64,000 nucleotides of DNA from Candidatus Brocadiia bacterium (GCA_050015075.1 JBEKCB010000004.1:96001-160000), one strand, 5' to 3'. Counted from the stretch's first letter, positions 4,793-20,281 are shown. The notes: a model not told the origin generated them from the sequence alone. Program-made: numbers and translations.

Positions 4793-4840
4793 TTGACAAC
4801 GTCATGGCCAGCGGATAGATTCCGCTTGTCATTCCGCTTG
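4793..4840 (+). promoter_or_regulatory. sigma70 promoter for the paralog array, with a direct repeat over the predicted transcription start
   Basis: TTGACA (4793) - 17 nt - TAGATT (4816); ATTCCGCTTG repeated at 4819 and 4831. Confidence 0.55.
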
Positions 4841-4881: not shown

Positions 4882-6069
4882 ATGATGATGTGGCAGCGCG
4901 TTCTGACGACAGGCGTCGTGCTGCTGGTCGCGACCGTTGCCGTCGCCGCGGACGAGGCCAAACCTGAGGCCTCCAATCCCTATGCGCAATGGAAGAACGG
5001 GCCGCCGAAGGATGCTTCCTTCTTCCCCATCGCCGTCTGGTGTCAGGACCCCGCGAATGCGGCCAAGTTTAAGAATGCGGGCATCAACGTATATATGGCC
5101 CTATGGAAAGGTCCGACCGAAGCCGACCTCGCTACGCTCAAGAAGGCCGGAGTATTGCTCATCTGCGACCAGAATGCCGTCGGCCTGGCTCACAAGAACG
5201 ATCCGACGATTATCGGCTGGATGCACGGCGACGAACCGGACAACGCCCAGGAGGTCCCGGGCGGCAAAGGCTACGGGCCGCCCATACTGCCGGCCAAGAT
5301 CATTGCCGGATACGAAGCGGCCGTCAAGGCGGACCCCACCCGGCCGGTGTTGCTCAATCTCGGCCGATCCGTGGCCTGGAACGGCTTTCCGGATCGCGGC
5401 GTGCGCTCCGAGCATGACGAAGATTACGCCGAATATGCCAAGGGAAGCGACATCGTCTCGTTCGACGTCTACCCCGTGTCGAACGTAGAGAAGCCAGCGG
5501 TCAAAGGCCAGTTGAATTTGGTTGCCCACGGCGTGGAGAACCTGATCAAGTGGACCGAAGGACACAAGATCGTCTGGAACGTCATCGAATGCACCGCGAT
5601 TAACGGAGCCGGGAAGGCGACGCCCAAGCAGGTCAAAGCCGAAGTCTGGATGAGCCTGGTGAGCGGGAGCCAGGGAATCACCTATTTCGTCCATCAATTC
5701 AAGCCCACCTTCGATGAGCACGCGCTGCTGGACGATCCGCCGATGCTCACCGCGGTGACGGCGCTCAACAAGCAGATCCATGAACTCGCCCCCGCTCTGA
5801 ACAGCCCCACCGTGAAGGACGCGGTCAAGGTGGAATGCTCGAACAAGGAGGTGCCGGTGGCGGCCATGGTGAAGAAAGAAGGCGGCGCAACGTACGTCTT
5901 TGCAGTTGCCATGAAGGCCGGCGAAACGGAAGCGACGTTCGGCCTGGAGGGTCTTCCTGCCGGCGCGCAGGTCGAAGTCCTCGGCGAAAACCGGAAGATT
6001 GAGCCGGCGGAGGGGAAGTTCAAGGACCGCTTCAGCAACTGGGACGTGCATCTCTATCGGATCAAATAG
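4882..6069 (+). CDS. Secreted clan GH-A-like glycoside hydrolase, array copy 1
   Basis: Sec signal ending AVA-A|DEAKP; GWMHGDEPDN (putative acid/base), FDVYP, WNVIECT (putative nucleophile); C-terminal beta-rich domain ending VHLYRIK; AAGGAGG RBS. Confidence 0.7.
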   Translation: MMMWQRVLTTGVVLLVATVAVAADEAKPEASNPYAQWKNGPPKDASFFPIAVWCQDPANAAKFKNAGINVYMALWKGPTEADLATLKKAGVLLICDQNAVGLAHKNDPTIIGWMHGDEPDNAQEVPGGKGYGPPILPAKIIAGYEAAVKADPTRPVLLNLGRSVAWNGFPDRGVRSEHDEDYAEYAKGSDIVSFDVYPVSNVEKPAVKGQLNLVAHGVENLIKWTEGHKIVWNVIECTAINGAGKATPKQVKAEVWMSLVSGSQGITYFVHQFKPTFDEHALLDDPPMLTAVTALNKQIHELAPALNSPTVKDAVKVECSNKEVPVAAMVKKEGGATYVFAVAMKAGETEATFGLEGLPAGAQVEVLGENRKIEPAEGKFKDRFSNWDVHLYRIK

Positions 6070-6083
6070 TCAAAGGAGAAACG

Positions 6084-7274
6084 ATGATGATCGGGCGGCG
6101 AGTCCTGGCGACGTGCGCTGTTCTTTTGGCCGCGACCATTGCCGCCGGCGCGGATGAAGCTAAACCGGCGGCCTCCAATCCCTATGCGCAATGGAAGAAC
6201 GGGCCGCCGAAGGATGCCGGCTACTTCCCCATCGCCGTCTGGCTGCAGGCCCCGGCGAACGCCGCCCGGTACAAGAACGCGGGCATCAATGTCTATGTCG
6301 GCTTGTGGCAGGGGCCGACGACAGCCCAACTCGCCGAGCTCAAGAAAAACGGAATGCAGGTCATCTGCGACCAGAATGCCGTCGGCCTGGCCCACAAAGA
6401 CGACCCGACCATCATCGGCTGGATGCACGGAGACGAACCGGACAATGCCCAGGAGCTCCCGGGCGGCAAAGGCTACGGGCAGCCCATATTGCCCTCCAAG
6501 ATCTTTGCGGAATACGAAGCGGTCCGCAAGACGGACCCCACTCGGCCGGTGCTCCTCAACCTCGGCGTGGGAGTGGCCTGGGACGGCTGGTACGGCCGCA
6601 ATGTGCCGGAGAATCTGCGGGAGACCTACGCCGAATCCCAGTACGTCAAGGGATGCGACGTCGTCTCGTTCGACATCTACCCCGTGGCGTCGGACGACGC
6701 GGCGGTCAAAAACAAGCTGGACTTCGTCGCCCTGGGCGTCGAGCGGCTGGTCAAGTGGACCGACGGGCGCAAGGTCGTTTGGAACTGCATCGAATGCGGA
6801 CGGATCGGCGGGACCGGCAAGGCGACGCCCAAGCAGGTCAAAGCGGAAGTCTGGATGAGCCTGGTGCATGGGAGCCAGGGAATCATCTATTTCGTCCATC
6901 AATTCAAGCCGACCTTTAACGAGCACTCGCTCCTGGACGATCCCGAGATGCTCGTCGCAGTGACGGCGCTGGACAAGCAGATCCATGAGCTCGCCCCCGC
7001 GCTGAACAGCCCCACCGTGAAGGACACGCTCAAGGTGGAATCCTCGAATAAGGAGGTGCCGGTGGCGGCCATGGTGAAGAAGGAAGGCGGAGCGACGTAC
7101 GTCTTCGCCGTCGCCATGAAGCCCGGCGAGACGGAAACCACGTTCGCTCTCGAGGGTCTCCCTGCCGGCGCGCAGATCGAAGTCCTCGGCGAAAACCGGA
7201 AGATTGAGCCGGCGGACGGCAAGTTCACGGACCGTTTCAGCAACTGGGACGTGCATCTCTACCGAGTCAAATAG
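6084..7274 (+). CDS. Secreted clan GH-A-like glycoside hydrolase, array copy 2
   Basis: Full-length paralog of copy 1; HGDEPDN and WNCIECG; AAGGAG RBS. Confidence 0.7.
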   Translation: MMIGRRVLATCAVLLAATIAAGADEAKPAASNPYAQWKNGPPKDAGYFPIAVWLQAPANAARYKNAGINVYVGLWQGPTTAQLAELKKNGMQVICDQNAVGLAHKDDPTIIGWMHGDEPDNAQELPGGKGYGQPILPSKIFAEYEAVRKTDPTRPVLLNLGVGVAWDGWYGRNVPENLRETYAESQYVKGCDVVSFDIYPVASDDAAVKNKLDFVALGVERLVKWTDGRKVVWNCIECGRIGGTGKATPKQVKAEVWMSLVHGSQGIIYFVHQFKPTFNEHSLLDDPEMLVAVTALDKQIHELAPALNSPTVKDTLKVESSNKEVPVAAMVKKEGGATYVFAVAMKPGETETTFALEGLPAGAQIEVLGENRKIEPADGKFTDRFSNWDVHLYRVK

Positions 7275-7290
7275 TCAAAGGAGGGCAACG

Positions 7291-8454
7291 ATGATCGTGC
7301 GGCGAGTTCTGGCGACGTGCGTTATCCTGCTGGCTGCGACCGTCGCCGCCGGTGCGGACGAAGCGAAACCTGAGTTCTCCAGCCCCTACGCGCAATGGAA
7401 GAACGGTCCGTCGAAGGACGACGCCTACTTCCCCATCGCCGTCTGGTGCCAGGAGCCTGTTATGGCGCCCGAGTACCAGAAAGCGGGCATCAATCTGTAC
7501 TTCGCGCTCTGGGAAGGGCCGACCGAGGCCCAGCTCGCCGAGCTGAAGAAAGACGGAATGCAGGTCGTCTGCGCGCAGAACGCCGTCGGCCTGGCGCATA
7601 TTGACGACCCGACCATCGTCGGCTGGATGCACGGCGACGAACCTGACAATGCCCAAAGCGGCGGCGCGCCCGTGCCGCCGGCGAAGATCGTCGAGGAATA
7701 CGAAGCGATCCGCAAGGCGGATCCTTCGCGGCCGGTGTTCGTCAATTTCGGCCGGGGCGTGGCCTGGGACGGCTGGAAGGGCCGTGGCACACGGAACAAT
7801 CACCCCGAGGACTTCGCCGAGTACATCAAGGGATGCGATATCGCCTCGTTCGACATCTATCCCGTGGCGAACATGCCGGCGAACCTCCGGGGCCAGTTGG
7901 ATTTCGTCGGCCACGGCGTCGAGCGGCTGGTCAAGTGGTGCGATGGGGGCAAGTACGCCTGGAACGCCCTCGAATGCACGCGGATCCACGGCGATGACAA
8001 GCCGACGCCCAAGCAGGTCAGGACGGAAGTCTGGATGAGCCTGGTGAAGGGAAGCCGCGGAATCATCTACTTCGTCCATCAATTCCTGCCCAAGTTTGAC
8101 GAGCATGCGCTGCTGGACGATCCCGAGATGCTCGCCGCGGTGACGGCGATCAATCGGCAGATCACGAGGCTCGCGCCCGTGCTGAACAGCCCCACCATTC
8201 CGGACGGAGTCAAGGTGGAATCCTCGAATAAGGACGTGCCGCTGGCGACCATGGTGAAGAAGCAAGGCGGCGCGACGTACATCTTCGCCGTCGCCATGAA
8301 GGCCGGCGCAACGGATGCCACCTTCACGCTCGACGGTCTCGCCGCCGGCGCGCAGGTCAGGGTCGTCGGCGAACGCCGGAGCATTGAGCCGGCGGACGGC
8401 AAGATTCGCGACCACTTCGACGACTGGGACGCGCATATCTATCGGATCCGGTAG
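7291..8454 (+). CDS. Secreted clan GH-A-like glycoside hydrolase, array copy 3
   Basis: Paralog; start moved to ATG 7291 after AAGGAGG; HGDEPDN and WNALECT; short deletion in the loop after DEPDNAQ. Confidence 0.7.
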   Translation: MIVRRVLATCVILLAATVAAGADEAKPEFSSPYAQWKNGPSKDDAYFPIAVWCQEPVMAPEYQKAGINLYFALWEGPTEAQLAELKKDGMQVVCAQNAVGLAHIDDPTIVGWMHGDEPDNAQSGGAPVPPAKIVEEYEAIRKADPSRPVFVNFGRGVAWDGWKGRGTRNNHPEDFAEYIKGCDIASFDIYPVANMPANLRGQLDFVGHGVERLVKWCDGGKYAWNALECTRIHGDDKPTPKQVRTEVWMSLVKGSRGIIYFVHQFLPKFDEHALLDDPEMLAAVTAINRQITRLAPVLNSPTIPDGVKVESSNKDVPLATMVKKQGGATYIFAVAMKAGATDATFTLDGLAAGAQVRVVGERRSIEPADGKIRDHFDDWDAHIYRIR

Positions 8455-8523
8455 ATGGCGGCTTTCAAGCCGTATGGGTTGTGCGCGCCCGCGTCACCGG
8501 ATTACCAGCGAAAAGGAGCAACG

Positions 8524-9711
8524 ATGATAATCTGGCGTCGAGTTCTGACGGCGGCCGTGGTCCTGCTGGCGGCGACCATCGCCGCAGGCGCGGACGAGGC
8601 TAAACCTGAGTACTCCAGCCCGTATGCGCAGTGGAAGAACGGGCCGCCGAAGGATGAGTCCTATTTCCCCATTGCCGTCTGGAACCAGAACCCGATGAAC
8701 GCGGCCAGGTACCAGAAGGCGGGCATCAATCTTTACATCGGCCTGTGGGAAGGTCCGACTGAGGTCCAGCTCGCCGAGCTGAAGAAACACGGAATGCCGG
8801 TCATCTGCGACCAGAACGCCGTGGGCCTGGCTCACGTTAACGATCCGACCATTATCGGCTGGATGCAGCAGGACGAACCGGACAATTCCCAGGAGATCCC
8901 GGGCAAGGAAGGTTACACGCCGCCGATCACGCCGGCCAGGGTCCTTGAGATCTATCAGGCGCTCCGCAAGGCGGATTCCACGCGGCCGGTGTTCCTCGGC
9001 CTCGGCCAGGGCGTGGCCTGGGACAACTGGTTCGGCCGCGGTGTACGCACCAATCACCCGGAGGACTACGCTGAGTACGTCAAGGGGTGCGACATCGCCG
9101 ACTTCGATATCTATCCCATGTCGCACGATAACCCGCAGGTCTATGGCAAGCTGGATTTCGTCGCCAAGGGCGTCGAGCGGCTGGTCAAGTGGACCGAAGG
9201 CCGCAAAATCGTCTGGAACACGATGGAATGCACGCTGATCGGCGGCTCGAATACCAGGCCGACGCCCAAGCAGGTCAAAGCGGAAGTCTGGATGAGCCTG
9301 GTGCACGGAAGCCGCGGAATCCAGTATTTCGTTTGTTCATTCAAGCCAACGTTCAAGGAGTACGCGCTGCTGGACGATCCCGAGATGCTCTCTGCGGTGA
9401 CGGCGATCAACAAGGAAATCCGGGAACTCGCGCCGGTGCTGAACAGCCCCACCATCAAGGACGCGCTCAAGGTGGAATCCTCGAACAAGGACGTGCCGGT
9501 GGCGACGATGGTGAAGAAGCACGGCGGCGCGACGTACGTCTTTGCCGTCGCCATGAAGGCCGGCGAGACGGAAGCCGCCTTCGCCCTCGAAGGTCTCCCT
9601 GCCGCCGCGCAGGTCGAAGTCATCGGCGAGAAGCGGAAGATCGAGCCGGCGGACGGCAAGTTCAAGGACCGCTTCGGCGGCTGGGACGTGCATCTCTATC
9701 GGATCAAGTAG
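8524..9711 (+). CDS. Secreted clan GH-A-like glycoside hydrolase, array copy 4
   Basis: Paralog; ATG 8524 after AAGGAG; QQDEPDN and WNTMECT. Confidence 0.7.
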   Translation: MIIWRRVLTAAVVLLAATIAAGADEAKPEYSSPYAQWKNGPPKDESYFPIAVWNQNPMNAARYQKAGINLYIGLWEGPTEVQLAELKKHGMPVICDQNAVGLAHVNDPTIIGWMQQDEPDNSQEIPGKEGYTPPITPARVLEIYQALRKADSTRPVFLGLGQGVAWDNWFGRGVRTNHPEDYAEYVKGCDIADFDIYPMSHDNPQVYGKLDFVAKGVERLVKWTEGRKIVWNTMECTLIGGSNTRPTPKQVKAEVWMSLVHGSRGIQYFVCSFKPTFKEYALLDDPEMLSAVTAINKEIRELAPVLNSPTIKDALKVESSNKDVPVATMVKKHGGATYVFAVAMKAGETEAAFALEGLPAAAQVEVIGEKRKIEPADGKFKDRFGGWDVHLYRIK

Positions 9712-9725
9712 GTAAAGGAGAAACG

Positions 9726-10916
9726 ATGATGATCGGGCGGCGAGTCCTGACGACATGCGCTATCCTGCTGGCCGCGACTATTGCCGCCGGCGCTGACGAA
9801 GCGAAGCCGGCGCCCGCCAATCCTTACGTGCAATGGAAGAACGGGCCGCCGAAGGATGCCGGCTACTTCCCCATCGCCGTCTGGTGCCAGGTGCCGGGCG
9901 ATGCGGCCAGGTACAGGCAGGCGGGCATCAATCTTTACGTCGCCCTGTGGGATGGGCCGACCGAGGCCCAGCTTGCCGAGCTCAAGAAATGCGGAATGCA
10001 GGTCATCTGCGAGCAGAACGCCGTGGGCCTGGCCCATAAGGACGACCCGACTATTGTCGGCTGGCTGCAGCCCGACGAGCCCGACAATGCGCAGGAGCTT
10101 CCGGGAGGCAAGGGTTGGGGACTGCCCATCTCGCCGGCCGAGATTCATAAGGGCTACGACGCGATGCGCAAGGCGGATTCCACGCGGCCGGTGTACTGTG
10201 GCCTCGGCGTAGGTGTGGCCTGGGACGGCTGGTACGGCCGCAACGTGCCTGCGGATAAACGCGACGAATACGCCGAGCCGCAGTATCTTAAGGGATGTGA
10301 TATCGTCGGCTTCGACATCTATCCCGCGGCGTCGGGCGACGCGGCGGTCAAAGGCAAGCTGGATTTCGTCGCCCTGGGCGTCAGCCGGCTGTACAAATGG
10401 GCCGACGGAAAGAAGATCGTCTGGAATACCATCGAGTGCACGAACATCTCGGGCGCGGGCAAAGCGACGCCCAAGCAGGTCAAGGCGGAATTCTGGATGA
10501 GCCTGGTGCGCGGCAGCCAGGGAGTCCTCTATTTCTGCCATCAAATGGGCCCCAAGTTTGACGAGCACGCGCTGCTGGACGATCCGGAGATGCTCGCCGG
10601 GGTGACGGCGATCAACAAGCAGGTCCATGAGCTTGCGCCCGCGCTGAACAGCCCCACCGTCAAGGACGCGCTCAAAGTGGAATGCTCGAACCAGGCCGTG
10701 CCGGTGGCGACGATGGTGAAGAAGGAAGGCGGCGCGACGTACATCTTCGCCGTCGCCATGCAGCCGGGCGAGACGGAAGCCGCGTTCACCCTCGACGGAC
10801 TCCCCGCCGGCGCGAAGGTTGAAGTCATCGGCGAAAACCGGAAGATTGAGCCGGCGGACGGCAAGTTCAAGGACCGCTTCAGCGACTGGGACGTGCATCT
10901 CTACCGGATCAAGTAG
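9726..10916 (+). CDS. Secreted clan GH-A-like glycoside hydrolase, array copy 5
   Basis: Paralog; true start ATG 9726 after AAGGAG (the ORF-track extension to 9189 overlaps copy 4); QPDEPDN and WNTIECT. Confidence 0.7.
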   Translation: MMIGRRVLTTCAILLAATIAAGADEAKPAPANPYVQWKNGPPKDAGYFPIAVWCQVPGDAARYRQAGINLYVALWDGPTEAQLAELKKCGMQVICEQNAVGLAHKDDPTIVGWLQPDEPDNAQELPGGKGWGLPISPAEIHKGYDAMRKADSTRPVYCGLGVGVAWDGWYGRNVPADKRDEYAEPQYLKGCDIVGFDIYPAASGDAAVKGKLDFVALGVSRLYKWADGKKIVWNTIECTNISGAGKATPKQVKAEFWMSLVRGSQGVLYFCHQMGPKFDEHALLDDPEMLAGVTAINKQVHELAPALNSPTVKDALKVECSNQAVPVATMVKKEGGATYIFAVAMQPGETEAAFTLDGLPAGAKVEVIGENRKIEPADGKFKDRFSDWDVHLYRIK

Positions 10917-10927
10917 GAAAAGGAGAA

Positions 10928-12115
10928 ATGATGATCATCGGGCGGCAAGTCCTGACGACGTGCGCTCTCTTGCTGGCCGCCACCATTGCCGCCGGCGCGG
11001 ACGAGGCCAAGCCTCAGGGCTCCAGTCCGTACGTGCAATGGAAGAACGGGCCGCCGAAGGATGAGTCCTATTTCCCCATCGTCGTCTGGGACCAGGAGCC
11101 GAGCGATGCGCCCCGGTACCAGAAGGCGGGCTTCAATCTTTACAACGGCCTGTGGATGGGGCCGACCGAAGCCCAGCTCGCCGAGCTCAAGAAACACGGA
11201 ATGCACGTCATCTGCGACCAGAACGCCGTGGGCCTGGCTCATAAGGACGACCCGATCATTGTCGGCTGGCTGCAGGAGGACGAGCCTGACAATTCCCAGT
11301 CGCTGCCCGGAGGCAAAGGCTACGGACCGCCTATTCTGCCAGCTAAGATCATTAAGATATACGAAGCGATGCGCAAGGCGGATCCCACGCGGCCGGTGTT
11401 CCTGGGTTTCGGCCAGTCGGTGGCCTGGGACGGCTATAATGGCCGTGGCGAGCGCAGCGGGCATCCCGAGGACTACGCCGAGTACGCCAAGGGAGGCGAC
11501 ATCGTCGCGTTCGACGTCTACCCCGTGTCGCACGGAGAACGGGAGATCAAAGGCAAGCCGGAGTACGTCGGCCTGGGCGTCGAGCGGCTGGTCAAGTGGA
11601 CCGGAGGACGCAAGATCGTCTGGAACACCGTCGAATGCACCGCGATTGACGGGGCCGGCAAGGCGACGCCCAAGCAGGTCAAAGCGGAAGTCTGGATGAG
11701 CCTGGTGCACGGGAGCCAGGGAATTCAGTATTTCGTCCATGAATTCAAGCCGAGAGAGAACGACCACGCGCTCCTGGATGACCCGAAGATGCTCGCCGCG
11801 GTGACGGCGATCAACAAGCAGATCCATGAACTCGCGCCGGCGCTGAACAGCCCCACCGTCAAGGACGCGCTGAAGGTGGAGTCCTCGAACAAGGACGTGC
11901 CGGTGGCGGCCATGGTGAAGAAGCACGGCGGCGCGACCTATGTCTTCGCCGTCCCCATGAAGGCCGGCGCCACGGAAGCCGTCATCACCCTCGACGGTCT
12001 TCCTGCCGGCGCGAAGGTCGAAGTCCTCGGCGAGGACCGGAAGATCGAGCCGGCGGATGGCAAGTTTCAGGACCACTTCGGCGACTGGGACGTGCACCTC
12101 TATCGGATCAAGTAG
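10928..12115 (+). CDS. Secreted clan GH-A-like glycoside hydrolase, array copy 6
   Basis: Paralog; QEDEPDN and WNTVECT; AAGGAG RBS. Confidence 0.7.
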   Translation: MMIIGRQVLTTCALLLAATIAAGADEAKPQGSSPYVQWKNGPPKDESYFPIVVWDQEPSDAPRYQKAGFNLYNGLWMGPTEAQLAELKKHGMHVICDQNAVGLAHKDDPIIVGWLQEDEPDNSQSLPGGKGYGPPILPAKIIKIYEAMRKADPTRPVFLGFGQSVAWDGYNGRGERSGHPEDYAEYAKGGDIVAFDVYPVSHGEREIKGKPEYVGLGVERLVKWTGGRKIVWNTVECTAIDGAGKATPKQVKAEVWMSLVHGSQGIQYFVHEFKPRENDHALLDDPKMLAAVTAINKQIHELAPALNSPTVKDALKVESSNKDVPVAAMVKKHGGATYVFAVPMKAGATEAVITLDGLPAGAKVEVLGEDRKIEPADGKFQDHFGDWDVHLYRIK

Positions 12116-12221
12116 GCGCCGGTCTTCGCGCTGACCGCGACCGGCGTCATGGCCTTAATGAGTTACAGCCGCAAAGCGGCGCAGGAAGGCCCTGCCTGTC
12201 CAAGCCACAAAGGAGCTGGAG

Positions 12222-13502
12222 ATGGCGGCGATGCAGATGATGGCTTTATGCCCGGCGTTCCTGACGCTCTTCGCCGCATCCCGCGCGATGGCTGAGAACC
12301 CGGCGTGGCCCGTCAAGGTCAGCCCGAACGGACGCTATTTCGTCGGCCAGGACGGCAAGCCGATCTTCTGGCTCGGCACAACCCAATGGGAACTCTTCCA
12401 CGGATATACTCTCGAGGACGCCCGGACGATCCTGCATCAGACCCGCAGCCATGGATTCACCTTCGTCCAGGTGATGCTCCTGGGCGTAAGCGACGGCACG
12501 AAGCCCAACGTGTACGGCGAGAAGCCCTGGATCAATGACAATCCGCTCACGCCGAACGAGGCGTACTTCAGGAACGTGGATGCCGTCGTGAAGGCCGCAC
12601 GCGCCGAGAACCTGACCATCCTGTTGACTACATACCATCAGAGCTGGCGCAAGTACATCACGGTGGAGAACGCGCGGGCCTGGACGAAATGGGTCTCGGC
12701 GCGTTACAAGGACGCGCCGAACATGGCCTGGACGATGAACCCGCAGGCGAAAGAGGAGTTCATCCCCGTCATCCGCGAGCTGGTTGCGGGCCTGCGAGAG
12801 GGAGACGACGGGCGCCACCTGATCAGCGCGAAGCCGGATCCCTCGCCTTTTTCGTCCAGCTTCGTCCACCCGGAGCCGTTGTTCGATTTCAACGCGATGC
12901 AGACCTGGAATGCCGTCCAGCTCATCTACCCCATGGTGACGCACGACTACCAGCTCAAGCCGGTGAAGCCCGTGCTCATGGCGGAAGGCGCGTACGAGGC
13001 GGGCTCCGAATACGGGTTCGAGGTCACGCCGCTCTGGGTTCGGCGGCAGGCCTACTACTCCTACCTGGCCGGCGCGCACCATACCTATGGGCATAACGCC
13101 AGTTGGCGCGTTCTGCCGAGTTGGAAGTCGGCGCTGGATGCGCCCGGCGCGCAACAGATGGGCATCCTCCGCAAGGTGTTCGAAGCGCGCGCGGAGTGGT
13201 GGCTGCTGGCGCCCGATCAATCCCTTTTCGCCGACGGCGGCCAGACGGAGGGTCAGATCCTTCACCTGGCGGCGCGGCACCAGGGCGGCAAATGGGCGAT
13301 GCTCTATCTCGCGGACAAGGCCGAGTTCAGCGTGGACCTCAGCAAGCTGAAAGGGCCCGGAGTCAGCGCCTTCTGGTGCAATCCGCAGTCGGGCGATAAG
13401 ACGCCGATCGAGCCGCTGACGAACAAGGAAGTGAAGCGCTTCTCAACGCCCGAAGGCTGGGAGGACGCTCTCCTGATCCTGGAGACAAAGGAGGAACGAT
13501 GA
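12222..13502 (+). CDS. DUF4038 / GH140 (apiosidase-like) secreted glycoside hydrolase with C-terminal collagen-binding-like domain
   Basis: Signal peptide; VKVSPNGRYFV..DGKPIFWLGTTQW, KPVLMAEGAYE, VRRQAY...HTYG, FWCNPQSG...FSTPEGWEDALLIL. Confidence 0.75.
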   Translation: MAAMQMMALCPAFLTLFAASRAMAENPAWPVKVSPNGRYFVGQDGKPIFWLGTTQWELFHGYTLEDARTILHQTRSHGFTFVQVMLLGVSDGTKPNVYGEKPWINDNPLTPNEAYFRNVDAVVKAARAENLTILLTTYHQSWRKYITVENARAWTKWVSARYKDAPNMAWTMNPQAKEEFIPVIRELVAGLREGDDGRHLISAKPDPSPFSSSFVHPEPLFDFNAMQTWNAVQLIYPMVTHDYQLKPVKPVLMAEGAYEAGSEYGFEVTPLWVRRQAYYSYLAGAHHTYGHNASWRVLPSWKSALDAPGAQQMGILRKVFEARAEWWLLAPDQSLFADGGQTEGQILHLAARHQGGKWAMLYLADKAEFSVDLSKLKGPGVSAFWCNPQSGDKTPIEPLTNKEVKRFSTPEGWEDALLILETKEER

Positions 13503-14680
13503 TGATGTGGCAACGTGTGCTGGCGACCTCCGTTATCCTGCTGGCGGCGGCCCTTGCCGCCGGCGCCGACGAAGCGCAACCCGAAGCGCCCGGTCCCTAT
13601 GCGCAATGGAAGAATGGGCCGGGAAAGGATGCTTCCTACTTCCCGCTCGCCGTCTGGGCGCAGGAGCCGCGCGATGCGGCCGGGTACAAGAAGGCGGGTA
13701 TCAATCTTTACATCGGCCTGGAGGGGCAACCCGACGCCGCGCTCGCAGAGTTGAAGAAAGCGGGGATGCCGGTCATCTGCGACCAGAATGCAAGGACTCT
13801 GGCCCACAAGGACGATCCGATCATCGTCGGCTGGATGCACGGCGACGAACCCGACAACGCCCAGGAGGTGCCCGGAAGCAAAGGCTACGGGCCGCCCGTG
13901 CTGCCGGCCAAGATCATCGCGGAGTACGAAGCGTTCCGCAAGGCGGATCCTTCCCGGCCGGTGCTGCTCAATCTCGGCCGATGCGTGGCCTGCGACGACC
14001 TGCCTGACCGCGACGGCCGTAGCCATCACCCGGAGGATTATCCCGAATACCTCAAAGGCTGCGACATCGGCTCGTTCGACATTTACCCCGTGGCGCATTC
14101 GTCCCCGCCGTACGCCGGCAAGCTGGATTTCGTCGGCACGGGCGTCGAGCGGCTGATCAAGTGGACCGACGGGCGCAAGCCTGTCTGGAACTGCATGGAA
14201 TGCACGCGGATCCACGGAGAAGACAAGCCGACGCCCAAGCAGGTCAAAGCGGAAATCTGGATCGGCCTGGTGCACGGGAGCCAGGGAATCATCTACTTCT
14301 GCCATCAGTTCCTGCCCAAGGAGGACGACCACGCGCTCCTGGACGATCCGCCGATGCTCGCCGCGGTCGGGGCGATCAACAAGGAGATCCTGGAACTGGC
14401 GCCGGCGCTGAACAGCCCCACTGTCAAGGACGCACTCAAGGTGGAATCCTCGAACGCCGAGGTGCCGCTGGCGACGATGGTCAAGAAGCAAGGCGGCGCG
14501 ACCTACATCTTTGCCGTCACCATGAAACCCGGCGAGACGCAAGCCGTCTACACCCTCGAGGGCCTCCCTGCCGGCGCGCAGGTCGAAGTCCTGGGCGAAA
14601 ACCGGAAGATCGAGCCGGTGAAGGGCAAGTTCAAGGACCACTTCGGCCACTGGGACGTGCATCTCTATCGGATCAAGTAG
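13499..14680 (+). CDS. Secreted clan GH-A-like glycoside hydrolase, array copy 7
   Basis: Paralog; ATGA overlap with the DUF4038 gene; HGDEPDN and WNCMECT. Confidence 0.7.
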   Translation: MMMWQRVLATSVILLAAALAAGADEAQPEAPGPYAQWKNGPGKDASYFPLAVWAQEPRDAAGYKKAGINLYIGLEGQPDAALAELKKAGMPVICDQNARTLAHKDDPIIVGWMHGDEPDNAQEVPGSKGYGPPVLPAKIIAEYEAFRKADPSRPVLLNLGRCVACDDLPDRDGRSHHPEDYPEYLKGCDIGSFDIYPVAHSSPPYAGKLDFVGTGVERLIKWTDGRKPVWNCMECTRIHGEDKPTPKQVKAEIWIGLVHGSQGIIYFCHQFLPKEDDHALLDDPPMLAAVGAINKEILELAPALNSPTVKDALKVESSNAEVPLATMVKKQGGATYIFAVTMKPGETQAVYTLEGLPAGAQVEVLGENRKIEPVKGKFKDHFGHWDVHLYRIK

Positions 14681-14702
14681 ACAACCAAGGAGGAAGAAGA
14701 CG

Positions 14703-15884
14703 ATGTGGCAGCGAGTTCTGACGACCGCCGCCGTGATTCTGTCCGCGACGATGGCCGCAGGCGCCGACGAAACGAAACCTGAGTTCGTCAGTCCCTATGC
14801 GCAATGGAAGAACGGGCCGTCGAAGGATGACTCCTTCTTCCCCATCGGCGTCTGTACGCAGGAGCCGAGCGATGCGCCCAGGTACCAGAAGGCGGGCATC
14901 AATTTTTACGAGGGCCTGTGGAAGGGGCCGACCGAAGCCCAGCTCGCCGAGCTCAAGAAATGGGGAATGTCGGTCTCGTGCAGCCAGAATGCCGTGGGCC
15001 TCGCCCACAAGGACGATCCGATCATCATCGCCTGGGAGATCGAAGAGGACGAACCCGACAACGCCCAGGCGCTCCCGGCAGGCAATGACTACGGGCCGCC
15101 GATATTGCCGGTCAAGGTCGTCCAGGAGTACGAAGCGATCCGCAAGGCGGATCCCACGCGGCCGGTGTTCCTCTGTCTCGGCCAGGGCGTGGCCTGGGAC
15201 GGCTGGGTCGGCCGCGGCGTGCGCACCAATCACCCCGAGGACTACCCCGAGTACGCCAAGGCGTGCGACATCGCCGCGTATGACATCTACCCCGCGGCGC
15301 ACACGAACCCGCAGGTCAAAGGCAAGCTGGATTTCGTCGCCCGGGGCGTCGAGCGGCTGGTCAAGTGGACCGGCGGACGCAAGCCGGTCTGGAACGCCAT
15401 CGAATGCACGCGCATCAATTCGGACACCAAGGCGACGCCCAAGCAGGTCAAGGCGGAAGTCTGGATGAGCCTGGTCCACGGCGCCGCCGGAATCCTGTAT
15501 TTCGTCCATGAATGGAAGCCCAAGTTCGACGAGCACGCGCTGCTGGACGATCCCGAGATGCTCGCGGCGGTGACGGCGATCAACGGGCAGATCAGGGAAC
15601 TCGCCCCGGCGTTGAACAGCCCCACTTTCAAGGACGCGCTCAAGGTGGAATCCTCGAACACGGGCGTGCCGGTGGCGGCCATGGTGAAGAGGCGCGGCGG
15701 CGCGACGTACGTCTTTGCCGTCGCCATGAAGCCCGGCGCGACGGAAGCCGCCTTCACACTCGAAGGTCTCCCTGCCGGCGCGCAGGTTGAAGTCATCGGC
15801 GAAAACCGGAAGATCGAGCCGGCGGGCGGCGAGTTCAAGGACCGTTTCGGCGACTGGGACGTGCATCTCTACCGGATCAAGTAG
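14703..15884 (+). CDS. Secreted clan GH-A-like glycoside hydrolase, array copy 8
   Basis: Paralog; WEIEEDEPDN (one-residue insertion) and WNAIECT; AAGGAGG RBS. Confidence 0.7.
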   Translation: MWQRVLTTAAVILSATMAAGADETKPEFVSPYAQWKNGPSKDDSFFPIGVCTQEPSDAPRYQKAGINFYEGLWKGPTEAQLAELKKWGMSVSCSQNAVGLAHKDDPIIIAWEIEEDEPDNAQALPAGNDYGPPILPVKVVQEYEAIRKADPTRPVFLCLGQGVAWDGWVGRGVRTNHPEDYPEYAKACDIAAYDIYPAAHTNPQVKGKLDFVARGVERLVKWTGGRKPVWNAIECTRINSDTKATPKQVKAEVWMSLVHGAAGILYFVHEWKPKFDEHALLDDPEMLAAVTAINGQIRELAPALNSPTFKDALKVESSNTGVPVAAMVKRRGGATYVFAVAMKPGATEAAFTLEGLPAGAQVEVIGENRKIEPAGGEFKDRFGDWDVHLYRIK

Positions 15885-15904
15885 ACAACCAAGGAGGAAC
15901 GAAG

Positions 15905-17083
15905 ATGATGTGGCACCGAGTCCTGACGACAGGCGTTTTAGTGCTGGCCGCGACCATTGCCGCCGGCGCCGACGAGGCTAAACCCGAGGCCGCCGGTCCC
16001 TACGCGCAATGGCAGAACGGGCCGCCGAAGGATGACTCCTATTTTCCGCTCGCGGTCTGGGCGCAGGAGCCGAGCGACGCGCCGAGGTATCAGAAGGCGG
16101 GCATCAATCTGTTCATCGGCCTGGAGGGGCGCGCCGATTCCGCACTCGCCGAGCTGAAGAAATATGGAATGCACGTCATCTGCGGCCAGGATGCTCGGAC
16201 TATGGCCCACAAGGACGATCCGACCATTGTCGGCTGGATGCAGGGCGACGAACCCGACAATGCCCAGGACCTGCCGGGACACAATGGCTACGGGCCGCCC
16301 ATATTGCCGGCCAAGATCATTGCGAAATACGAAGCGATGCGCAAGGCGGATCCAACCCGGCCGGTGTTCCTCAATCTCGGCCGGGCCACGGCCTGGGATG
16401 AGCTTCCCGACCGCGGCGAGCGCAGCAGGCATCCCGAGGACTACGTCGAGTACGTCAAGGGATGCGACATCGCCTCGTTCGACATCTACCCGGTGGCGCA
16501 GAACGACCCGAAGGTCAAGAACAAGCTGGAGTTCGTCGGCAAGGGCGTCGAGCGGCTGGTCAAGTTCACCGACGGGCGCAAGCCGGTCTGGAACTGCATC
16601 GAATGCACGCGGATTGACGGCGGCGACAAGGCGTCGCCCAAACAGGTCAAGGCGGAAGTCTGGATCGCCCTGGTGCATGGGAGCCACGGAATCGTCTATT
16701 TCTGCCATGCCTTCAAGCCCACAGAGGATGACCACGCGATCCTGGACGATCCCGAGAACCTCGCCGCGGTGACGGCGATCAACGGGCAGATCCGGGAACT
16801 CGCCCCTGCGCTGAACAGCCCCACCATCAAGGGCGCGCTCAAGGTGGAATCCTCGAACGAGGACTTGCCGGTGGCGGCCATGGTGAAGAAGCACGGCGGC
16901 GCGACCTACGTCTTCGCCGTCGCCATGAAGCCCGGCGAGACGGAAGCCAGCTTCACCCTCGAGGGTCTCCCGGCCGGCGCGAAGGTCGAAGTCCTCGGCG
17001 AGGGCCGGAAGATCGAGCCGGCCGACGGCAAGTTCAAGGACGCCTTCAAGGACTGGGACGTCCACCTCTATCGGATCAAGTGA
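15905..17083 (+). CDS. Secreted clan GH-A-like glycoside hydrolase, array copy 9
   Basis: Paralog; QGDEPDN and WNCIECT; upstream spacer TAGACAACCAAGGAGGAA identical to the one before copy 8. Confidence 0.7.
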   Translation: MMWHRVLTTGVLVLAATIAAGADEAKPEAAGPYAQWQNGPPKDDSYFPLAVWAQEPSDAPRYQKAGINLFIGLEGRADSALAELKKYGMHVICGQDARTMAHKDDPTIVGWMQGDEPDNAQDLPGHNGYGPPILPAKIIAKYEAMRKADPTRPVFLNLGRATAWDELPDRGERSRHPEDYVEYVKGCDIASFDIYPVAQNDPKVKNKLEFVGKGVERLVKFTDGRKPVWNCIECTRIDGGDKASPKQVKAEVWIALVHGSHGIVYFCHAFKPTEDDHAILDDPENLAAVTAINGQIRELAPALNSPTIKGALKVESSNEDLPVAAMVKKHGGATYVFAVAMKPGETEASFTLEGLPAGAKVEVLGEGRKIEPADGKFKDAFKDWDVHLYRIK

Positions 17084-17146
17084 AGCAGGTTCGTGACAGC
17101 CGCGGACCGCCGGTCACCTGAAAACCATGGTTGAAAAAGAAAAGCG

Positions 17147-18013
17147 GTGAAAACGAAGCACTGGGCTGCCGTTGCTCTATGCACGGGACTGATCGCCGCG
17201 TTCACCGCCGTCATTGCGCTCAATTACGGCCTCTTTTCACCGGGCCATGTCCAGGCGCTGTCCCGCGCCTGGTTCATGGTGCTGGTCGCGGCCTTCCTGA
17301 CCGGCTACATTGACACCTGCGTCGGCGGCGGCCACGGCACGCTGCTGACTCCGGTCCTCATTCTCCTGGGATTCACGGCCGCGATGGTGGTCCCGGCCGT
17401 TCTCCTGTCTGAGATCGCCATCGGCATCCTGGCCACCATCCTGAATCACCGCGCGGGCAACATTCGCCTGGCGCAGGGCGAGCAGCACCGCCGCGTGCTT
17501 CTCGTGCTGGCCGCGTGCTCGCTGGTCGGCTCGTTCATCGCGGTGACGGTGGCCATGCAGGCGCCGCCGAAATGGGTCAACGCCTACATCGGCATGATGA
17601 TCATGGCAGTGGGAGTTCTGCTCCTGGCGGGACGAGGGATTCCCCGCAAGTTCTCGATGCGGCGGATCGCGGTCCTGGGCACGATCGCCGCGTTCAACAA
17701 GGGCCTGTCCGGCGGCGGCTACGGGCCCCTGCTCACCAGCGGCCAGATTCTCTCGGGAGTGGGCGAGAAAGGCGCGGTGAGCATCACGCCGCCCGCCCGC
17801 GGGTTGACCAGCCTGTTCGCGGTGACGCTGTACTTCGCGGCCAGGGGCCGCCTGGAATTGAACTTGGCCGCCCCGCTCATTATCGGCTCCCTGCTGGCGA
17901 TGCCGGCGGCCGTCGGCACGATTACCTGGATCGAGGCCCCGATGCTGCGGAAAGGCATCACCGTGGCCACCCTGATCCTCGGCGCACTGCTCGTGATCAA
18001 GGCGTTTCATTGA
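17147..18013 (+). CDS. TauE/SafE (TSUP) family sulfite-exporter-like membrane protein
   Basis: Multiple TM helices; IDTCVGGGHGTLLTPVLILLG and FNKGLSGGGYGP internal-repeat motifs. Confidence 0.8.
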   Translation: MKTKHWAAVALCTGLIAAFTAVIALNYGLFSPGHVQALSRAWFMVLVAAFLTGYIDTCVGGGHGTLLTPVLILLGFTAAMVVPAVLLSEIAIGILATILNHRAGNIRLAQGEQHRRVLLVLAACSLVGSFIAVTVAMQAPPKWVNAYIGMMIMAVGVLLLAGRGIPRKFSMRRIAVLGTIAAFNKGLSGGGYGPLLTSGQILSGVGEKGAVSITPPARGLTSLFAVTLYFAARGRLELNLAAPLIIGSLLAMPAAVGTITWIEAPMLRKGITVATLILGALLVIKAFH

Positions 18014-18057
18014 ACGGTATTCCGGGAAACACGACCCGCATGGAAATGGAGAGACTC

Positions 18058-20175
18058 GTGAAGTACCTCCCTTTCGTCAGCGCGGCGCTGCTCCTCGCGA
18101 GCGCCTGTCCTGCATGGGCGCTGGAACCCGCCAATCTCAAGGCCGACGCGCAGGCCCGCGCGATCCTCAATTACCTGGAGAGGCTTCCGCGGCAGGCCGA
18201 CAAGAGGCTGCTCTCGGGGCAGTTCATTAATTTCGGCCCTTCCGCCAAGCTGGAGATCTGCTCGGAGATCCACGATAAGACGGGCCACTGGCCGGCGATC
18301 ATCGGCTTGGACTACGCCGACTTCGCCAGGGGCGGCCTGGTGTACAAGACCGTCAACCGCCTGGCCGTCGAGTACGCCCGGCAAGGCGGCCTGATCACCA
18401 TCTCCGCGCACCTCTACAACCCGGCGAATCCCAACGGCGGCGGCCTCCGCGACGAGGGTGTGGACCTGCAGAAACTCCTCTCGCCCGGCAACGACGCCCA
18501 TGACCGCTGGATGAAGGAACTGGACACCCTCGCCGCCGGGCTGAAGGAGTTGCAGGACGCCGGCGTGGTCGTCCTTTGGCGGCCGTTCCACGAGATGAAC
18601 GGCGGCTGGTTCTGGTGGGGCGCGAAGGACCCCGAGACCTTCATCCGCCTCTGGCGGCACATGTTCGATTACTTCACCGGGACCAAGGGCTTGAACAACC
18701 TGCTATGGGTCTACTCGCCCAACCACGGCGACAAGACCGCCGACTACTATGCCGGGGACCAGTACGTGGACATCGTCGGCCTCGACGCCTACACGGATTT
18801 TGTGGACCCGCAGCACATTCGCGGCTACGACGCCGTGGCCGAGCTGCCCAAACCGTTCGCCTTCACCGAGTTCGGCCCGCATGGCCCGCAAGACCCGCCG
18901 GGCGACTACGATTACCTCCGCTTCATCGGCGGCGTCGAGAAGTATTTTCCCAAGACGACTTTCTTTCTCGCCTGGAACGACAAATGGAGTCTCGCCCGGA
19001 ACCGGAACGTGAAGCAACTCCTGGAGCATCCCTGGCTGGTCAACCGCGAGGACCTGCCTGAAGCGCTGGCACCGCAGCACGCCAGTCCCTACGCGCAATG
19101 GAAGAACGGGCCGCCGAAGGATGACTCGTACTTCCCCATCGCCGTGTGGGACCAGGAGCCCAGTCATGCGGCCGAGTACCGGAAGGCGGGCATCAATCTC
19201 TACATCGGACTGTGGGACGGGCCGACCGAGGCCCAGCTCGCCGAGCTCAAGAAATGCGGGATGCCGGTCATCTGCGACCAGAATGCCGTGGGCCTGGCTC
19301 ACAAGGATGATCCGATCATTGTCGGCTGGATACGCGGCGATGAGCCCGACAACGCCCAGCCGCTCCCGGCCGGCGGCGGCTACGGACCGCCCATACTGCC
19401 GGCGAAAATCGTGGAGCAATACGAGGCGATGCGCACGGCGGATCCCTCGCGCCCGGTGCTCCTCTGGCTCGGCTTGGGCGTGGCCTGGGATGGCTGGTTC
19501 GGCCGCGGCGTGCGCACCAATCACCCCGAGGACTACGCGGAGTACGTCAAGGGGTGCGACATCGCCGCGTTCGACATCTACCCCGTGGCGGACCCGCGCC
19601 CGGAGTTCGCAGGCAAGCTGGATTTCGTCGGCCGGGGCGTGGAGCGGCTGGTCCAGTGGACTGACGGACGCCAGCCCGTCTGGGATTCCATCGAGTGCAC
19701 GCGCATCAATTCGGGCGCCAGGCCGACGCCGAAGCAGGTCAAGGCGGAAGTCTGGATCAGCCTGGTGCATGGCAGCCGCGGAATCAAGTATTTCTGCCAT
19801 GAATGGAAGCCCAAGTTCAACGATCACGCGCTTCTCGACGACCCCGATATGCTCGCTGCGGTGACGGCGATCAACCGGCAGATTCGGGAACTCGCGCCTG
19901 CGCTGAACAGCCCCACCGTCAAGGACGCGCTCAAGGTGAAATCCTCGAACAAGGACGTGCCGGTGGCCACCATGGTCAAGAAGGAAGGCGGCGCGATGTA
20001 CGTCTTTGCCGTCGCCATGGGGCCCGGCGAAACGGAAGCCGCCTTCACCCTCGACGGCCTCCCCGCCGGCGCGCAGGTCGAAGTCCTCGGCGAATACCGG
20101 AAGGTCGAGCCGGCGGATGGCAAGTTTCAGGACCGCTTTTGCGACTGGGATGTGCATCTCTACCAGATCAGGTAG
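18058..20175 (+). CDS. Bimodular secreted enzyme: GH26 beta-mannanase-like domain fused to array copy 10
   Basis: GTG 18058 after GGAGAG; signal peptide; GH26 motifs WRPFHEMNGGWFWW, DIVGLDAY, FTEFG; from 19084 the array domain without its signal (SPYAQWKNGPPKD...RGDEPDN...WDSIECT...VHLYQIR). Confidence 0.85.
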   Translation: MKYLPFVSAALLLASACPAWALEPANLKADAQARAILNYLERLPRQADKRLLSGQFINFGPSAKLEICSEIHDKTGHWPAIIGLDYADFARGGLVYKTVNRLAVEYARQGGLITISAHLYNPANPNGGGLRDEGVDLQKLLSPGNDAHDRWMKELDTLAAGLKELQDAGVVVLWRPFHEMNGGWFWWGAKDPETFIRLWRHMFDYFTGTKGLNNLLWVYSPNHGDKTADYYAGDQYVDIVGLDAYTDFVDPQHIRGYDAVAELPKPFAFTEFGPHGPQDPPGDYDYLRFIGGVEKYFPKTTFFLAWNDKWSLARNRNVKQLLEHPWLVNREDLPEALAPQHASPYAQWKNGPPKDDSYFPIAVWDQEPSHAAEYRKAGINLYIGLWDGPTEAQLAELKKCGMPVICDQNAVGLAHKDDPIIVGWIRGDEPDNAQPLPAGGGYGPPILPAKIVEQYEAMRTADPSRPVLLWLGLGVAWDGWFGRGVRTNHPEDYAEYVKGCDIAAFDIYPVADPRPEFAGKLDFVGRGVERLVQWTDGRQPVWDSIECTRINSGARPTPKQVKAEVWISLVHGSRGIKYFCHEWKPKFNDHALLDDPDMLAAVTAINRQIRELAPALNSPTVKDALKVKSSNKDVPVATMVKKEGGAMYVFAVAMGPGETEAAFTLDGLPAGAQVEVLGEYRKVEPADGKFQDRFCDWDVHLYQIR

Positions 20176-20281
20176 AGCGCCTCCGCGCTGAGTTGCGCGC
20201 TCGGCGGACCCGTGGTACGATTCAGATGCAAGTTCCGTGCAGGTCCGGCCGCTTTACTCCGAGTTGATGAAAGGCAAAACG

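Follow-up and report, generated by a model that had tools for sequence, protein, structure and literature searches.

Two glycoside hydrolase (GH) families provide the closest described counterparts of the proteins considered here. According to the available excerpt of the GH164 paper (PMC7105311), the enzyme is made up of a barrel, a trimerisation domain and a beta-sandwich, strands 4 and 7 carrying the catalytic Glu residues, and GH26 belongs to the clan GH-A families that act on beta-mannose linkages. The second family, GH42, comprises beta-galactosidases and alpha-L-arabinopyranosidases (e.g. 4OIF, 5XB7, 3TTS and 1KWK). In the present study, a cluster of related genes was analyzed in a stretch of 64,000 nucleotides (the window) from an uncultured peat planctomycete, Candidatus Brocadiia bacterium (GCA_050015075.1 JBEKCB010000004.1:96001-160000). 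On the + strand, between positions 4882 and 20175, the window carries nine tandem complete genes (c1 to c9, 387-396 codons each) and a tenth copy, c10, which is present as a fused domain. The array is likely to consist of tandem paralogs, from a GH42/GH164-like family not yet classified, that neofunctionalised under episodic selection, and not to be a hypervariable repertoire.

Bs164, the GH164 beta-mannosidase of Bacteroides salyersiae (6T5O), was the best structural match, and one of the window copies is fused to a GH26 domain. Bs164, however, has 658-681 residues according to the available excerpt of its description, its barrel and sandwich being separated by a trimerisation domain of about 220 residues, whereas the window proteins have 387-396 residues and are without this domain. 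GH42 enzymes resemble the window family in their structural Z scores, in weak Pfam matches, and in the nucleophile and strand-6 motifs, but the Pfam scores remained below threshold, and the window proteins have two domains instead of three, the central trimerisation domain being absent. Also unlike GH42, the window proteins carry N-terminal signal peptides (judged by eye), and their acid/base motif reads D-E-P, compared with Asn159-Glu160 in the GH42 enzyme BiBga42A, as given in the excerpt of PMC10688820 that was available.

Neofunctionalisation after duplication, with positive selection at substrate-contact sites, has been documented in eukaryotic glycosidase and glycosyltransferase families, as far as the accessible parts of two papers go (PMC13336362, PMC13572035). 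The window array shares with these tandem-enzyme cases the duplication in tandem, a ratio of nonsynonymous to synonymous substitution rates (dN/dS, omega) above 1 at a minority of sites after duplication, and purifying selection afterwards. It differs in being a bacterial ten-copy cluster, in an uncultured peat planctomycete, of a family without a characterised member; a limited literature search found no comparable post-duplication case in Planctomycetota. The targets of diversity-generating retroelements are also similar, in that a conserved framework carries a few highly variable positions on one face. In the window, however, the variable positions are conserved between orthologs, the variation being between paralogs and not between alleles, and a Pfam scan of 36 window open reading frames (ORFs) detected no reverse transcriptase domain, a template repeat not being searched for separately. 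New enzyme specificities usually arise by such a process, seen here in a bacterial array of unusual size whose family is unclassified.

Divergence among paralogs and conservation between orthologs

According to the original prediction, residues next to the ends of predicted beta-strands differ in almost every copy, on a scaffold that is nearly invariant. A string check of the translations found every one of the listed variable strings in the ten copies, both after FPIAV (WCQD, WLQA, WCQE, WNQN, WCQV, WDQE, WAQE and CTQE) and before DEPDN (MHG, MQQ, LQP, LQE, IEE, MQG and IRG), and likewise on strand 5, after the nucleophile and on strand 8. The scaffold was as constant as described for LNSPT (10/10 copies) and GGATY (9/10), and DEPDN was present in 10/10, but the description was overstated for PKQVKAEVW (7/10) and LLDDPEML (5/10). 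Amino acid identity of the copies to c1 was 66-77%, with a mean column identity of 79%. The observation is real: there is more variability than expected by chance, and site models allowing omega above 1 beat their nulls.

Pairwise Nei-Gojobori comparisons among the ten copies gave dN/dS values of 0.32-0.60 at synonymous divergences (dS) of 0.31-0.56. Codon models were fitted with our own Goldman-Yang likelihood code, using F3x4 frequencies and, for the ten-copy site models, optimising all branch lengths. Omega was 0.27 under M0. The dN/dS site models that had been proposed along with the prediction favoured a class with omega above 1 at a minority of sites, in the M7/M8 pair as well as in other codon models of this implementation. 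M2a improved on M1a (log likelihood (lnL) -7052.98 vs -7059.85, 2dlnL 13.7, p 0.001), placing 3.0% of sites at omega 3.1, and M8 improved on M7 (lnL -7028.38 vs -7045.23, 2dlnL 33.7, p 5e-8), with 7.3% of sites at omega 2.0. M8 was also preferred to M8a (lnL -7037.06, 2dlnL 17.4, p 1.5e-5). Naive empirical Bayes (NEB) posteriors of about 0.95 or more were obtained for sites 203, 170, 89, 208, 54, 177, 204, 143 and 30.

A genome of the same genus (G001) carries a syntenic array at about 91-92% nucleotide identity. The 11 ortholog pairs (c1-c9 and two dispersed copies) were all recovered as cherries with 100% bootstrap support, and their dN/dS was 0.09-0.28. A two-ratio model assigned an omega of 0.098 to the ortholog branches and 0.42 to the inter-paralog branches, with a likelihood ratio test (LRT) statistic of 222. 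In a four-class model, half of the sites (50%) had an omega of 0.07 throughout, 6% were neutral, 35% were relaxed between paralogs (omega 0.68, compared with 0.07 between orthologs), and the remaining 9.4% had an omega of 3.42 between paralogs and 0.17 between orthologs. For this last class the LRT against omega = 1 was 38.5 (p 3e-10) on the maximum likelihood (ML) tree, 105.6 on a star tree, 20.8 under F61 frequencies, and 23.2 when each of three gene segments had its own tree (17% of sites then being at omega 2.1).

Sites with P>=0.9 in the four-class model were taken as selected. They numbered 23, of which 21 were recovered with F61 frequencies, 18 with the segment-specific trees and 23 with the star tree. 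The mature protein contains 22 of them (c1 residues 54, 59, 76, 89, 141, 143, 159, 170, 177, 203, 204, 206, 208, 216, 234, 239, 241, 243, 244, 270, 272 and 300). Among the 21 positions listed in the original prediction, five (54, 159, 239, 270 and 272) belong to the selected class, but most of the others fit the merely relaxed class. At the 22 sites, paralogs were identical in 19.8% of comparisons (196/990) and orthologs in 90.5% (199/220). Site 54, which reads C, L, C, N, C, D, A, T, A and D in c1 to c10, was identical in 9/10 ortholog pairs. An omega of 3.4 between paralogs and 0.17 between orthologs at the same sites indicates that selection was episodic.

Paralog dS was equal within and across the two genomes (0.459 vs 0.463), indicating that no gene conversion has taken place since the species split. 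It was only 1.2-2.3 times the ortholog dS, and the deep tree is near-star, as would be expected if the duplications had come in a burst shortly before the split.

Predicted fold and position of the selected sites

AlphaFold, given an alignment of 52 sequences, produced a model of c1 with a predicted local distance difference test (pLDDT) score of 91.7 and a predicted template modelling (pTM) score of 0.88. It consists of an eight-stranded (beta/alpha) barrel and a beta-sandwich (Table 1), without a middle trimerisation domain, and no further Pfam domain was found. The top match in a structural search independent of Foldseek was GH164 6T5O (Z 26.0, root mean square deviation (rmsd) 3.7 A over 330 residues, 10% identity), followed by five GH42 chains with Z 22.3-24.6. 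Foldseek against the PDB returned only generic TIM-barrel glycosidases (GH13, GH66 and GH30) with template modelling (TM) scores of about 0.45-0.54.

Sequence comparisons gave weaker signals. No Pfam family was assigned at E<=0.01 to c1, c2 or c6, and no NCBIfam family at E<=10 to any of three proteins. Glyco_hydro_42 was the only meaningful Pfam match at E<=10 (14.2-19.3 bits, over strands 6-8), the three copies scored (14.4, 19.3 and 14.2 bits; E 7.8e-4 to 0.027) all missing the GH42 (PF02449) gathering threshold of 21 bits. When the 52-sequence profile was compared with all PDB chain sequences at E<=10, only 8te8 and 4oif were returned. As 6t5o was not among them, the strong structural match shows the fold and not membership of GH164.

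In the predicted model, strand 4 spans residues 110-117 and is followed by E118, and strand 7 spans residues 233-236 and ends at E236; these ends (D117-E118 and E236) agree with the strands assigned in the original prediction. E236 was invariant in 52/52 aligned sequences, and E118 was conserved in at least 90% of the 52. The placement of Glu residues on strands 4 and 7 that characterises clan GH-A was therefore found, on a predicted structure. The hidden Markov model (HMM) alignment placed E236 on the Glu of the MECT motif in GH42 chain 4OIF, the family xEC(T) on MECT, and the strand-6 D-x-Y-P on WDAYP of 4OIF. The nucleophile role of this Glu is taken from the equivalent Glu318 of BiBga42A, as described in the available part of PMC10688820. 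Taken together, these results make it probable that the family is an unclassified, secreted GH42/GH164-like relative within clan GH-A, with Glu118 (DEP) as predicted acid/base and Glu236 as predicted nucleophile.

The selected sites were not distributed evenly over this model. Beta-alpha loops account for 93 of the 367 mature residues and contain 14 of the 22 sites (odds ratio 5.9, p 1e-4). Strands 5, 6, 7 and 8 precede 2, 4, 4 and 2 of these, respectively, and strands 1 and 2 one each. Two further sites lie within strands 5 and 7, and the 34 residues of the alpha-beta loops, the 22 of the N-terminal extension and the 89 of the C-terminal sandwich contain none. The enrichment in beta-alpha loops persisted when the comparison was confined to the barrel (odds ratio 3.2, p 0.01) or to variable sites (odds ratio 4.1, p 0.004), and when it was made with alpha-beta loops (p 0.0096). 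By a coarse topological proxy for height, the upper half of the barrel contains 19/22 selected sites, compared with 143/234 other barrel sites (p 0.007). Replacements between orthologs, which indicate how much change is simply tolerated, were not enriched on the catalytic face (odds ratio 0.6) and were most frequent in the C-terminal domain (0.108 per site-pair), so that the face most divergent among paralogs is the one best conserved within each lineage.

Sites 239-244 lie 3-8 residues past the predicted nucleophile. In BiBga42A, Trp326, eight residues past the nucleophile, forms subsite +1, with Arg327 in contact with subsite +3, according to the accessible part of PMC10688820, and the alignment with 4OIF places the GH42 subsite +1 Trp at family position 242. 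Topology, as far as it goes, supports a concentration of positive selection on the substrate-binding face of the predicted barrel.

Several observations weigh against this interpretation. The placement is derived from the barrel topology of the AlphaFold model, not from measured distances; helices carry six of the 22 sites (59, 89, 141, 143, 216 and 300), two of these (89 and 300) on the lower half of the barrel; and the sites do not cluster strictly at strand ends as originally predicted (positions -1 to +5 of the C-end: 7/22 vs 49/234, p 0.18). The codon models, with NEB posteriors and 8 beta classes, are not standard software, and in the four-class fits branch lengths were free only to the extent of two scale factors. 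With a single foreground class, branch-site model A gave an omega of 1.11 for 34% of sites (LRT 1.45, not significant), the signal of selection appearing only once relaxed and positive classes were separated. A pairwise homoplasy index (PHI) test indicated recombination among the copies (p 0.007), which can inflate such LRTs, and the deep tree was weakly resolved, with bootstraps of 24-64. In distant clade-mates (metagenome proteins of 71-95% identity), the 22 sites were 60% identical compared with 81% overall, suggesting that turnover continues on longer time scales or that further paralogs are included.

Some of these points would be expected if selection had only been relaxed, with the copies drifting after duplication and omega above 1 arising spuriously from ancient gene conversion, from errors in the deep topology or from multi-nucleotide mutations. 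The foreground omega of 1.11 does not differ from 1, and 35% of sites fit the relaxed class. Recombination is suggested not only by the PHI test but also by paralog dS, which was lower in the 3' third, encoding the C-terminal domain (codons ~290-393), than in the barrel (0.34 vs 0.46), and by the sliding windows (33/385, mostly in the 3' part) in which a paralog was as close as the ortholog or closer. Together these hint that gene conversion affected the 3' part before the two species diverged. Relaxation alone is nevertheless unlikely, since the LRT for omega above 1 remained significant under the ML, star and segment-specific trees and with F61 frequencies, and was about 0 in null simulations (2/2, only two being run). 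Moreover, drift would not leave the C-terminal domain, the part least constrained between orthologs, without a single site while placing 14/22 in beta-alpha loops.

Homologs, copy turnover and habitat

More than 4606 homolog matches were scored in one search, and at least 2751 clusters were found at E<=1e-3 among 50%-identity representatives. Automatic names on neighbouring Atlas clusters read 'GH42 N-terminal domain-containing protein'. Species-representative genomes contained at least 559 loci, mainly in Planctomycetota and Verrucomicrobiota. The genome to which the window belongs has 14 close copies (ten in the array and four elsewhere) and three distant proteins of ~1000 residues. Close copies (E<=1e-60) were present in only 3/31 genomes searched, this genome included. 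Within the available DNA, 77/79 examined loci were single-copy, although many lie on short contigs and are weak evidence on rarity. An array was found among the 79 only at L005 and L039, which are on one contig of one metagenome-assembled genome (MAG) of a Candidatus Brocadiia bacterium and were not counted as independent of G001.

A scan of 42 longer homologs identified FecR (5), extracytoplasmic function (ECF) sigma factors (4), DUF4082 (4) and GH26 (1) as fusion partners, as well as PA14, CBM9, laminin-G, dockerin, SLH and Ig-like modules. The FecR- or ECF-fused proteins are P0121, P0123, P0135, P0150, P0151, P0158, P0189, P0233 and P0234. In these FecR-type anti-sigma and ECF sigma-factor fusions of other organisms the family domain is the C-terminal, presumably extracytoplasmic, part. 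Such fusions suggest that the fold is also used in glycan sensing.

One of the dispersed paralogs in the same genome (G000:C3:2911-4089, - strand) reads GVPDE in place of DEPDN and has lost the predicted acid/base Glu. Its ORF is intact, and its ortholog in G001 is 92% identical with a dN/dS of 0.175; judged by its sequence, it may be a non-catalytic binding form.

These fusions, and the paralog without the DEP motif, would agree with the window proteins being non-catalytic carbohydrate-binding or sensor proteins, in which the glycosidase fold serves as a lectin-like scaffold with varied binding sites. We consider this improbable, as DEPDN is retained in every window copy, the strand-7 Glu is invariant in the alignment, the catalytic motifs are under strong purifying selection, and the proteins have signal peptides and are encoded next to GH26 and GH140-like enzymes.

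Two of the ten copies, c3 and c10, are lost or broken in the sister species. An insertion of ~0.65 kb divides the c3 ortholog between the RGTRNN and HPEDF codons, and since dN/dS relative to c3 is 0.09-0.12 in both halves, the break is either recent or an assembly artefact. At the position of c10 (L001:16330-16480) a deletion of ~1.1 kb has left a remnant of ~15 codons and a stop after GH26, followed by the downstream intergenic sequence, indicating that the GH26-c10 fusion is ancestral and that the domain was lost in G001.

The array was represented, at half or more of its sampled words, in 14 peat-metagenome runs; no RNA run was among the runs matching these words. Fragmented contigs from four peat metagenome runs cover all 30 bins of the array, mostly at >=99% identity, with 193 differences. 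Some of the peat contigs join one paralog to another (window positions 6247-7507, 6249-8789, 6907-11761, 7198-20146 and 7865-16585). They skip 1.3-12.9 kb, the short sides of the joints being only 20-51 letters long, and may represent either copy-number variants from unequal crossing-over or artefacts of repeat assembly.

Ongoing diversification, by an arms race or a diversity-generating mechanism that maintains a true hypervariable repertoire, would be in line with sites of omega above 1 on a conserved scaffold, with the lower identity at these sites in distant clade-mates and with the two damaged copies, but it is very improbable given the purifying selection on the ortholog branches (at the selected sites as in the whole genes), the lack of exchange between copies since speciation, the absence of a reverse transcriptase domain from the 36 window ORFs scanned, and the near-identity of the peat contigs to the window. 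Of the diversifying selection on the binding pocket proposed originally, the excess of nonsynonymous change and, by topology, the enrichment on the catalytic face were borne out, but the selection is not ongoing. Likewise, with 199/220 residues identical between orthologs and an omega of 0.17, the term "repertoire" is fair only for a fixed set of specialised paralogs and not for a hypervariable one.

Organization of the cluster and its meaning

The genes of the cluster are all co-oriented, with gaps of -4 to 106 nt between consecutive genes (Table 1). Two unrelated genes interrupt the array, one encoding a GH140-type apiosidase-like protein and the other a TauE-type protein. The stand-alone copies start with a hydrophobic, signal-peptide-like segment that ends in A-x-A/G-ADE (alignment, by eye), whereas c10 begins exactly at the mature N-terminus of the family, the GH26 domain replacing the signal segment.

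Table 1. Genes and features of the paralog cluster. Positions refer to the window unless stated otherwise; aa, amino acids.
Feature	Position	Strand	Description and evidence
Paralog c1	4882..6069	+	395 aa; ORF; AlphaFold model; sub-threshold Pfam GH42 match, 14.4 bits
Parts of c1	Signal peptide; TIM barrel ~48-306; beta-sandwich 315-394 (residues)	+	AlphaFold model
Span of c1 with the 22 selected codons	5041..5781	+	P>=0.9, omega 3.4 class on inter-paralog branches; homologous codons in c2-c10
Paralog c2	6084..7274	+	396 aa; 77% identical to c1; G001 ortholog o2 95% identical
Paralog c3	7291..8454	+	387 aa; 6-residue deletion in beta4-alpha4 loop; G001 ortholog interrupted by insertion
Split c3 ortholog	L001:4450-5150 (G001:C57, ~14950-15650)		
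Paralog c4	8524..9711	+	395 aa; alignment
Paralog c5	9726..10916	+	396 aa; alignment
Paralog c6	10928..12115	+	395 aa; alignment
Unrelated glycosidase gene, GH140-type apiosidase-like + Collagen_bind_2	12222..13502	+	Pfam PF13204 E 2.4e-62; PF12904 E 5.3e-14
Paralog c7	13499..14680	+	393 aa; start overlaps stop of preceding gene by 4 nt
Paralog c8	14703..15884	+	393 aa; best sub-threshold Pfam GH42 match, E 7.8e-4, 19.3 bits
Paralog c9	15905..17083	+	392 aa; alignment
TauE/SafE-type membrane protein gene within cluster	17147..18013	+	Pfam PF01925 E 1.7e-23
GH26-c10 fusion gene	18040..20175	+	GH26 at residues 34-337, Pfam PF02156 E 6.6e-64
Paralog domain c10, C-terminal part of GH26 fusion	19069-20175	+	Alignment

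Outside the cluster the window contains ordinary chromosomal genes, such as those for Pol I, Rho, an ArgB-type kinase and an Mla transporter as well as Nuo-type genes. Upstream, the cluster is flanked by a gene of the MttB methyltransferase superfamily (3366-4757). The downstream flank (20237-21517) encodes a hydrophobic, signal-like N-terminus and an alpha-alpha toroid of the squalene-hopene-cyclase/prenyltransferase type (PF13243, E 7.6e-10); alpha-alpha toroids occur in glycan-active enzymes too. A scan of the window for promoter-like sites (5 vs 3.2 expected) and terminator-like sites (11 vs 15.1 expected) was uninformative. The best promoter-like site (10/12 matches) is at 4793-4821, just upstream of c1.

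Every paralog is overlapped by a long antisense ORF on the - strand (316-484 aa; 5101-6051, 6054-7256, 7267-8436, 9696-10898, 10901-12097, 13304-14662, 14673-15866, 15938-17065 and 18703-20157), with a conserved MHVPVAE-like start peptide. The GC content at third codon positions (GC3) was 0.62-0.69 in the five antisense ORFs for which it was computed, compared with 0.79-0.85 in the sense frames. By their composition, the antisense ORFs are read as mirror ORFs of a GC-rich gene and not as genes.

For the array as a set of neofunctionalised paralogs, the following course of events is proposed. A burst of tandem duplication would have preceded the split of the two congeneric species. Right after duplication about one third of the sites would have been relaxed, and 9-17% of sites, mostly in beta-alpha loops of the substrate face, would have been driven by positive selection to copy-specific residues, which purifying selection would have held thereafter. 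We infer that the outcome would be a fixed set of active enzymes with one catalytic machinery and differing sugar or linkage specificities, probably co-expressed with the GH140-like and GH26 enzymes and degrading a complex plant- or moss-derived peat glycan.

A bolder version, which can be put forward only tentatively and is somewhat doubtful, is that the array represents an adaptive radiation of a new GH-A family, a minimal, secreted relative of GH42/GH164 with only two domains, in which ten co-expressed enzymes with a common catalytic core are tuned through positive selection to ten linkages of one complex peat glycan. If this were true, the 22 positions would be a natural map of specificity determinants for the whole family (at least 2751 clusters).

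The family is large and has neither a curated model nor a characterised member. A ten-copy array together with the ortholog array of a sister species is a rare natural experiment, in which the sites that would set specificity can be told from those that keep the fold, and the selected sites are concrete targets for enzyme discovery and engineering. The array also provides a clean bacterial example of duplication followed by a short adaptive burst and then stasis. Finally, it suggests that uncultured peat planctomycetes have a glycan-degrading capacity that has gone unrecognised and is relevant to the turnover of peat carbon.

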